Shown: positions 23,129 to 23,862, counted from the stretch's first letter. The stretch: 64,000 nt of DNA from an uncultured Acidobacteriota bacterium (GCA_963828465.1 CAWHEU010000018.1:1-64000); one strand, 5' to 3'. The notes: generated by a model not told the origin, from the sequence alone. Numbers and translations: made by a program.

Positions 23129-23862
23129 CATTCTTGTTACTCCTCACATTCGCATGTGAGTGGCCAGGTCATTTCTGCCTGACTCCCCATGTCGCCATGA
23201 GGATCGGACTGTATCTTCACCACGTCAGCGTGGTGCCTTGCGTGCAGTCTCTGAGGATCCCAGGAGGATTTCCTCGATAGATCTCGACCGTTGCCGGCCC
23301 CTCGCATTCATCGAGTAGGCACGCCGGACGATGTCTTCGAAGACCTCAGGGCGGTGGTGACTTCTGGCTCGAATCGCCCTCACAATGAAGGCGAACTGCT
23401 CGAAGTCGTACCGCTTCACTCTCAGCGCGTTCTCCTCGAAGAAGGGAAGGACCCTCTCCTCGAGCTGGATCGTGCTGTGCACTGTGTAGACGTCGACCGA
23501 GCTCGCTCGGTCCCTTCGAACGCACGCTTCCGCATGCGAAGAAGGTCCTGAGCCCCTCGAGGACGTCCCGGTGGTCTGTGTGTTGGGAGACCTGGAACGT
23601 GGGCTGGACGTGCCAGCCACGTGTAGGTCTCGCCAGTTCGTTGCGATGCACGGATACTGAGAAGCATCCTTCGCCATCAACGAACCCCACGACCCATCCC
23701 GGATCGAGTGCATCGAGTCTGGTTTCCTGCTGATTGTCCGCACCGATCGGATTGTCACTTTCCATGTCTCGACCCTACGGAGAGGGTCTGACAAGAACTA
23801 GTACCGTCGGATACTCGGATGTTCCAGCATATAGCAAGGTTTACCCACGGCCAGTAGGTCTA
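23129..23862 (-). mobile_element. Group I self-splicing intron at 23S L1923 (734 nt)
   Basis: Splits TAACTATAACGGT^CCTAAGGTAGCGA. The 5' exon ends in U and the intron ends in G. P1 is ACGGU/GCCGU with a U-G pair. Core elements: P (AUGCUGGAA ~23822-30), Q (AAUCAGCAGG ~23726-35), R (UCAGAGACUGCA ~23243-54), S (AAGAUACAGUCC ~23206-17). Confidence 0.95.
23225..23765 (-). CDS. Intron-encoded single-motif LAGLIDADG homing endonuclease; +1 frameshift near 23505
   Basis: WVVGFVDGEGCFSVSV, VQPTFQVSQ, LRTFFACGSV. After the shift: SSVDVYTVHS...VLPFFEENALRVKRYDFEQF...AYSMN. Confidence 0.9.

Follow-up and report, generated by a model that had tools for sequence, protein, structure and literature searches.

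A group I intron with a frameshifted LAGLIDADG gene after U1923 in the 23S rRNA gene of a probable Acidimicrobiia-like bacterium

Position 1923 of the large-subunit (LSU) rRNA is a known site of group I introns. It is the site of I-CeuI (n.1923), where the LSU intron of the Chlamydomonas eugametos chloroplast is inserted, as given in the available part of PMC3315327 and as the original prediction on the DNA studied here had stated. In archaea, about nine group I introns of subgroup IB4 are described at LSU/1923, and the available portion of that paper presents these LSU positions as group I sites already known (Nawrocki, Jones and Eddy 2018, PMC6125680). For bacteria, the accessible text of Haugen et al. 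2007 (PMC1995217) places rDNA introns with endonuclease genes at L1917, L1931, L1951 and L2593 only, with Thermotoga, Simkania, Coxiella and Synechococcus as hosts, and the sites named for CPR bacteria in the accessible text of Tsurumaki et al. 2024 (PMC11270868) are 1917, 1931, 1952, 2593, 2604 and 2657. As far as these texts go, both treat bacterial rRNA introns as rare outside the CPR.

We analysed a window of 64,000 nucleotides (GCA_963828465.1, CAWHEU010000018.1:1-64000) from an uncultured bacterium recorded as Acidobacteriota, in which a 734-nt insert follows U1923 of the 23S rRNA gene. Taken as a whole, the evidence makes it very likely that this insert is a group I intron of the organism's sole 23S gene, and the endonuclease gene housed in its P6 has probably decayed by frameshift. 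It belongs to an ordinary kind, that of group I introns with a LAGLIDADG gene, and the comparative side-results are of modest interest.

The closest described systems each share part of its features. Like the archaeal LSU/1923 introns, it occupies the same site, is of group I and comes from a metagenomic assembly; many of those also hold a LAGLIDADG ORF in a peripheral loop, and they too are detected in two pieces when the ORF sits in P6 (PMC6125680, available portion). Unlike them, it has a bacterial host, and the two may share subgroup IB4. It shares with the C. eugametos intron the position of insertion, the target site and an endonuclease with a single LAGLIDADG motif; compared by protein only, the relation to I-CeuI (2ex5) is weak (42.7 bits, E 4.4e-10 over 95 residues), whereas halves of I-SmaMI/I-OnuI-type enzymes score far better (E 1e-33 to 1e-40). 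The bacterial introns of PMC1995217, as described in its accessible text, resemble it in size (654-774 nt there, 734 nt here), in having no P2, in lying in domain IV/V of the 23S rRNA and in their ORF of ~160-190 aa, which encodes a single LAGLIDADG motif and extends into the ribozyme core, but the four bacterial sites given there do not include L1923. At L1931, relatives of the window have a homologous intron, either alone or twinned with the L1923 intron around an 8-nt exon. As in the CPR/Patescibacteria of PMC11270868, group I introns and LAGLIDADG_1 genes are found in most assembled 23S genes of the lineage, but the accessible text on the CPR set does not name 1923 (its supplementary tables may), and the host here is a probable actinobacterium outside the CPR.

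No paper on bacterial L1923 introns came up in our literature search, entries in supplementary tables being conceivable. Searches on 23S introns of Acidimicrobiia gave nothing relevant, those on group I introns in actinobacterial 23S genes gave none on such introns by title or abstract, and those on rRNA introns and homing endonucleases in metagenome-assembled genomes (MAGs) gave CPR, Asgard or methods papers only. The site and the type of intron are both on record from elsewhere, and unannotated public genomes contain abundant copies; what is new is a site undescribed for bacteria in the literature searched. The novelty foreseen in the original prediction holds to that extent and does not extend to the site itself, at which IB4 introns were described in archaea in 2018 (PMC6125680, available portion).

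The insert, its gene and its host

The rRNA operon sits within a 387-kb contig of the assembly of the window organism (G000; 29 contigs, 3.07 Mb, 92% complete, 4.8% estimated contamination). Its 23S gene matches the Rfam model LSU_rRNA_bacteria over 3784 nt against 2925 model positions, and it is the only LSU rRNA match in the whole assembly. Aligned with E. coli K-12 rrlH by MAFFT, the 23S gene of the window has a single 734-nt gap immediately 3' of E. coli position 1923, and the junctions on the rRNA strand read ...ACTATAACGGT ^ TAGACCTACTGG...AACAAGAATG ^ CCTAAGGTAGCGAAAT, the insert lying between the two ^ marks. The extent and position originally predicted are therefore exact, and the 5' exon U, the omega G, the U.G wobble of P1 and the R and S elements named with them are all present; the minus strand, the LAGLIDADG ORF and its frameshift had been overlooked. 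We take L1923 to be the foot of helix 69, a conserved region of the subunit interface. All features are collected in Table 1.

Table 1. Features of the rRNA operon, the intron and its endonuclease gene (window coordinates)
Feature	Position	Strand	Basis or remark
16S rRNA gene	26225..27753	minus	rRNA operon of the window
23S rRNA gene, intron host	22153..25936	minus	Rfam LSU_rRNA_bacteria, 2743.8 bits, model 1-2925
5S rRNA gene	21963..22079	minus	rRNA operon of the window
Group I intron, 734 nt, after E. coli U1923	23129..23862	minus	exon junctions, Rfam, alignment, mapped pairs
5' exon end ACGGU (E. coli 1919-1923), 5' strand of P1	23863..23867	minus	U1923 at 23863
Internal guide sequence GGCCGU, 3' strand of P1	23847..23852	minus	intron nt 11-16
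P3 5' strand CCUUGC	23834..23839	minus	pairs with 23236..23241; 4/6 pairs compensatory in relatives
P4 5' strand (UGCUGG region)	23824..23829	minus	RNAalifold, pair counts
P5 with long extension (P5a-c-like), boundaries approximate	23734..23823	minus	RNAalifold helices 4-7
P4 3' strand UCAGCAGG, Q element	23726..23733	minus	also encodes endonuclease N-terminal ...NQQE...
P6 5' strand	23717..23725	minus	pairs with 23255..23264; ORF body occupies P6 loop
P6 3' strand	23255..23264	minus	mapped pairs
R element UCAGAGACUGCA, with P7 5' strand GACUG	23243..23254	minus	Rfam alignment
P3 3' strand GCAAGG	23236..23241	minus	pair counts
P8 hairpin	23218..23235	minus	Rfam alignment
S element AAGAUACAGUCC, with P7 3' strand CAGUC	23206..23217	minus	Rfam alignment, pair counts
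P9 hairpin, GCGA tetraloop	23185..23202	minus	RNAalifold, pair counts
P9.1 hairpin	23163..23183	minus	RNAalifold, pair counts
P9.2 hairpin	23143..23160	minus	all 6 pairs covary in relatives
Terminal (omega) G, 3' splice site	23129	minus	directly before CCUAAGG
Endonuclease N-terminal 86 codons, native frame	23508..23765	minus	ORF listing, Pfam
Extra A, intron nt 356, +1 frame shift	23507	minus	against in-frame relatives L004, L006
Endonuclease C-terminal 93 codons, shifted frame	23225..23506	minus	stop TGA 23227..23225 in P8 loop

By 16S rRNA, the nearest named records to the window are two labelled uncultured Acidobacteriota (99.9% and 97.8% identity); a record labelled Actinomycetota has 91.5% and many loci labelled Acidimicrobiaceae or Acidimicrobiales have 87-90%, compared with ~80-82% for loci labelled Chloroflexia and Eremiobacterota. 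The host is thus probably Acidimicrobiia-like (87-91.5% to loci labelled Acidimicrobiaceae, Acidimicrobiales or Actinomycetota), as first proposed, and the Acidobacteriota labels appear doubtful. Labels were also found to conflict with 16S/23S similarity at four public loci (L035, L046, L111 and L060, labelled Acidobacteriota or Spirochaetaceae), which group with Acidimicrobiia-labelled loci and the window (16S 99.9%, 97.8% and 87.2%); the intron of L060 has the same length, ends and ORF start as that of L033. Compared with E. coli, the 23S rRNA of the window is further expanded by 24+55 nt near 272-290 (window ~25565..25661, minus strand) and by 66 nt after ~1404 (window ~24383..24448, minus strand), the latter presumably where high-G+C Gram-positives/Actinobacteria typically have an insertion.

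Group I fold and the P1 guide

The Rfam model RF00028 (Intron_gpI) aligns to 23185..23398 of the window with 32.5 bits (E 2.2e-6), below its gathering cut-off of 50, and a search of the window at gathering thresholds reported rRNA alone and no Intron_gpI match. In this alignment R, the 3' strand of P3, P8, S and P9 fit well and the 5' half fits poorly, because the core is split by the ~450-nt ORF in P6. Two ORF-less introns at the same site in relatives do pass the cut-off (L016 with 55.2 bits and L014 with 51.6 bits), and L014 is ~90% identical to the first 142 and last 133 bases of the window intron. The check by covariance model that the original prediction had proposed is in this way passed by these two relatives, the window intron itself falling short.

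The fold was assessed on 10 natural ORF-less L1923 introns, for which a consensus was computed by RNAalifold and P7 was added as a pseudoknot. The consensus contains P1, P3, P4, P5 with a long extension, P6, P9, P9.1 and P9.2, and no P2. Across the 84 counted pairs, P7 included, 96.5% are paired compared with 87.8% in shuffled alignments, and 36 of the 84 show compensatory change, against 16.1+-2.3 in the shuffles (0 of 500 shuffles reached 36) and 5-11 pairs in controls in which the partners were slid by 1-3 columns. The pairs of P7 are 100% paired, and the P5 stem with its extension contributes 15 pairs with compensatory change. When the family pairs are mapped onto the window intron, 76 of the 84 are canonical. 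The non-canonical pairs number three, of which two belong to the P5 extension and one to the outer end of P1; a further five were unmappable in the two-segment alignment, four of them in distal P6, where the window has a CAG/CUG pairing of its own. By structural and comparative grounds, then, the assignment of the insert to the group I introns is confirmed, with helices P3 to P9.2 and a P3/P7 pseudoknot that covary in the ORF-less relatives. An architecture that lacks P2 and has extended P5 and P9 regions would be compatible with an IB4-like intron. For P10, inspection by eye of the 3' exon against the P1 loop gave only a 4-bp possibility, which is non-adjacent and unconserved in relatives, and no P10 is therefore claimed. 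An intervening sequence processed by RNase III was also considered for the insert and ruled out as a class, the insert having a full group I core.

In P1, the exon end ACGGU pairs with the guide GGCCGU and leaves a U1923.G wobble at the 5' splice site. Among 47 distinct L1923 introns from hosts with an ACGGU exon, the guide is GGCCGU in 39 and GGCUGU in six (45/47 together), and the remaining two comprise a G.U-rich variant and one intron (L019) that has no such guide. Five hosts from other families of the same order have swapped a base pair of helix 69 (exon ...GGCGGUAACUAUAACCGU), and in all five of these ACCGU-exon hosts the intron guide is GGCGGU. The guide thus tracks the helix-69 swap in the host, and this comparison gives direct evidence for the formation of P1 and for selection on it.

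The LAGLIDADG gene, its frameshift and splicing

A LAGLIDADG homing-endonuclease gene lies inside P6 of the intron. It starts with an ATG at 23765, in the distal 3' strand of the P5 extension, runs through the 3' strands of P5 and P4, which encode a conserved ...ADNQQE..., fills the P6 loop and continues through the 3' strand of P6, P7 and the 3' strand of P3. The N-terminal piece matches Pfam LAGLIDADG_1 (PF00961) with E 2.3e-12 (48.1 bits, cut-off 23.1) and contains the motif GFVDGEG. The reading frame is interrupted by a +1 frameshift at 23507, after codon 86; without the extra base, the two parts correspond to an intact orthologue of 179 aa (P0001, from G005 and G025), which matches LAGLIDADG_1 with E 2.9e-19 (70.3 bits). 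The best PDB matches of this orthologue are halves of monomeric LAGLIDADG meganucleases, headed by aHE15 (E 5.7e-40) and followed by I-SmaMI (E 3.9e-33) and the I-OnuI family; aHE15, I-SmaMI, the I-OnuI family and 5gkk score 77-140 bits, against 42.7 bits for I-CeuI (2ex5). An I-CeuI lineage was ruled out for the endonuclease, I-CeuI not being the closest characterised LAGLIDADG enzyme by score. The protein family comprises 1353 clusters at E <= 1e-10 in public data, and the best 120 of these are all at least 59% identical and are labelled hypothetical protein or carry no label.

Our proposal for the working of the intron follows the canonical group I scheme. In the pre-rRNA, the guide would pair with the exon end and present the U1923.G wobble, at which an external guanosine bound at P7 would cleave; the terminal G would then replace the external guanosine and the exons would be joined to give ...ACGGU-CCUAAGG.... 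Intact orthologues, with a single LAGLIDADG motif and with gene ends that overlap the ribozyme core, would cut intron-less L1923 sites and so bring about homing, and the gene of the window, cut short by its frameshift, would most likely be a recent pseudogene. The intron is apparently fixed in the genus, with no empty site seen, and the endonuclease would therefore be left without anything to cut. There is one 23S copy in the assembly, and for this reason the original statement that the intron must splice is a reasonable one. Twenty public sequencing runs were listed, 16 of them RNA, and the best two contained 0.55 and 0.52 of the sampled words, shares that are no evidence of expression or splicing.

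Whether the frame is really broken depends on the extra A, and we consider that the gene is probably a real and recent pseudogene of the window organism. The same intron could also hold an intact endonuclease, if the extra A were an assembly or sequencing error, and the enzyme would then be active or serve as a splicing helper (maturase); we regard this as unlikely, though well worth weighing. The window gene is just a single 1-nt change away from a full frame of 179 codons, and pN/pS against G006 is 0.09 (18 synonymous, five non-synonymous differences), so that the protein must have been under selection until recently. Single-nucleotide indels also break ordinary genes in related assemblies: the 10.2 kb flanking the intron contain nine between the window and its closest relative, G029 (16S 99.9% via L035, intron 99%), and the window may hold one itself at ~13967. 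A maturase role is mentioned for the LAGLIDADG protein of a Thermotoga 23S intron in the available part of PMC3984707, which would suit an intact gene. However, the extra A lies outside any homopolymer run, the gene of G029 is broken at the same spot in a different manner and has two more frameshifts, and the changes between the two endonucleases are mostly non-synonymous (seven, against one synonymous). The indels of the flanks mostly break the frames of G029, the window frames being mostly the intact ones. A comparison of the window with G029 gives 0 changes in the 195 nt of the ribozyme cores, eight substitutions and three indels in the 537 nt of the ORF, and 13 substitutions and two indels in 3000 nt of flanking rRNA-operon DNA. 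ORF-less copies of the intron persist in relatives, which argues that the ribozyme is independent of its own protein and against a maturase.

Two further alternatives concern the insert itself rather than its gene. It might not be spliced with ligation of the exons, either staying in the mature 23S rRNA or being excised by an RNase III-type activity that leaves the 23S rRNA fragmented, and an apparently unspliced 23S group I intron has reportedly been seen in Simkania. We hold this to be highly improbable: across many hosts, and in ORF-less copies too, the whole core, the guide and the terminal G show conservation with compensatory changes, as expected under selection for ribozyme activity; intervening sequences simply lengthen a helix and have none of the P3-P9 folds; and the presumed place at the foot of helix 69 also speaks against retention or fragmentation. 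That the insert is an assembly chimera or a contaminant rRNA fragment seems to us a negligible prospect. The draft nature and estimated contamination of the assembly would allow it, as would the two kinds of 23S fragment in the bins of some relatives (G060), but the operon lies inside a large contig, both exon junctions are exact and near-identical introns occupy the same place in several independently assembled relatives. A spliced group I intron with a probably decayed endonuclease gene is therefore the reading that we retain. In an ordinary gene of the window, one base is lacking at ~13967 compared with the nearest relative, leaving a stop-free frame of 514 aa against 596 aa, which may be a frameshift or an assembly error.

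Relatives and public genomes

Matches to the intron DNA were found in 25 of 61 related genomes, the window's own and G039 included; G039 enters into this count alone. The helix-69 exon motif, with ACGGT- or ACCGT-type exons, is assembled in 26 places in 24 of the 61 genomes; 12 of these places (in 11 genomes) have an L1923 insert, one is aberrant (G026), seven have an L1931 intron only and six are uninterrupted, and the L1931 introns are related to the L1923 intron. Within the genus of the window, the L1923 intron is present in 10 genomes, counting the aberrant copy of G026 and the copies of G003, G015 and G019 that are cut by contig ends, and the L1931 intron is present in three. No uninterrupted site was seen among the 30 other genomes of the genus, for which 13 genomes provide the evidence; the other 18 of the 31 genomes, a total that includes the window's own, show nothing, and most of them consist of ~80 or more contigs. 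The apparent fixation in the genus rests on 13 genomes because most genomes without a match are fragmented and probably lack the rRNA.

The endonuclease gene of the genus is found at several stages, being intact in G005 and G025, frameshifted in G000, G006 and G029 and cleanly deleted in G024 and on a second contig of G029, where a 282-nt mini-intron is left. The G029 bin thus holds two L1923 intron alleles, one with a frameshifted ORF (G029:C10:4894-5627) and one without an ORF (G029:C24:3495-3775), and the core segments of the latter are 100% and 96% identical to those of the window.

We scanned 185,579 public species genomes for the exon followed by a base other than C, with counts that cover at least 120 matching stretches. 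At least 44 bounded L1923 inserts of 253-804 nt were obtained, all in MAGs. Among the matches listed, 24 of the 44 are labelled Acidimicrobiaceae, Acidimicrobiales, Acidimicrobiia, Actinomycetota, Actinomycetes or Actinobacteria, and the other labels include Acidobacteriota, Gemmatimonadota, Anaerolineae, Armatimonadota, Ignavibacteria, Margulisiibacteriota, Bipolaricaulota, Peribacteria, Nomurabacteria, a deltaproteobacterium and others; the rest of the matches listed are C1924 variants, chance matches outside rRNA, truncated loci and other inserts. The suggestion that the intron may represent an undescribed lineage finds no support here, since introns at the same site are frequent in relatives and occur in these at least 44 named public MAGs of many phyla. 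The pattern CGTAACTATAACGGTD, found in 15 of 401 genomes of a class-wide sample, was rejected as a measure of prevalence: it misses hosts with an ACCGT exon and introns that begin with C (G042), it counts C1924 variants, and it comes without a denominator of genomes in which the site is assembled.

From these data we tentatively entertain a wider reading, plausible but still somewhat doubtful, in which an order-level, Acidimicrobiia-like lineage outside the CPR would have L1923 and/or L1931 introns in almost all of its 23S genes, long since fixed and passed on by vertical descent, with a guide that followed the helix-69 swap of the host and an endonuclease caught at every stage. If this were true, every ribosome of these soil bacteria, with their single rRNA operon, would depend on a ribozyme step; no such case would have been described before except in organelles and the CPR, and L1923 would be a new bacterial intron site in print. 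The window and its relatives show a common group of uncultured soil actinobacteria in which introns at the I-CeuI site are routine. Intron-bearing 23S genes are ~0.3-1.5 kb longer than expected, which breaks rRNA annotation, primers and assembly, and the endonuclease ORFs of such introns are annotated as hypothetical proteins. With intact, frameshifted and deleted endonucleases all seen, the family offers a clean natural series for the gain, decay and loss of a homing-endonuclease gene and for the covariation of guide and rRNA target, and the large family of intact endonucleases, with its 1353 clusters, is one from which new meganuclease specificities can be drawn for the surroundings of a universally conserved site.

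Several loci depart from the simple arrangement. Twin introns at L1923 and L1931 around the 8-nt exon CCTAAGGT were observed at L029, L058, L067, L085, L100 and L125, in Acidimicrobiia-type MAGs, usually with an ORF in one intron and none in the other (794+327 or 349+782 nt, for example). In G012:C19 (L009), an intron 77% identical to that of the window follows CCTAAGGT, at L1931, and keeps an L1923-type guide region, and in G026:C7 (L008) CCTAAGGT flanks both sides of a 783-nt, indel-ridden intron copy; these two aberrant copies may be recombinants of twin introns or assembly artefacts. Contigs C15 and C83 of the G060 bin hold an intron-bearing 23S piece with an ACCGT exon and an uninterrupted piece with an ACGGT exon, which may reflect two organisms in one bin or two divergent operons. 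L142 (G052:C40) and L143 (G041:C33) have an L1931 intron of ~500 nt. In G052, a second pair of intron-core matches is found ~1.1 kb further along the same 23S gene, which suggests a second, related intron at another 23S site.
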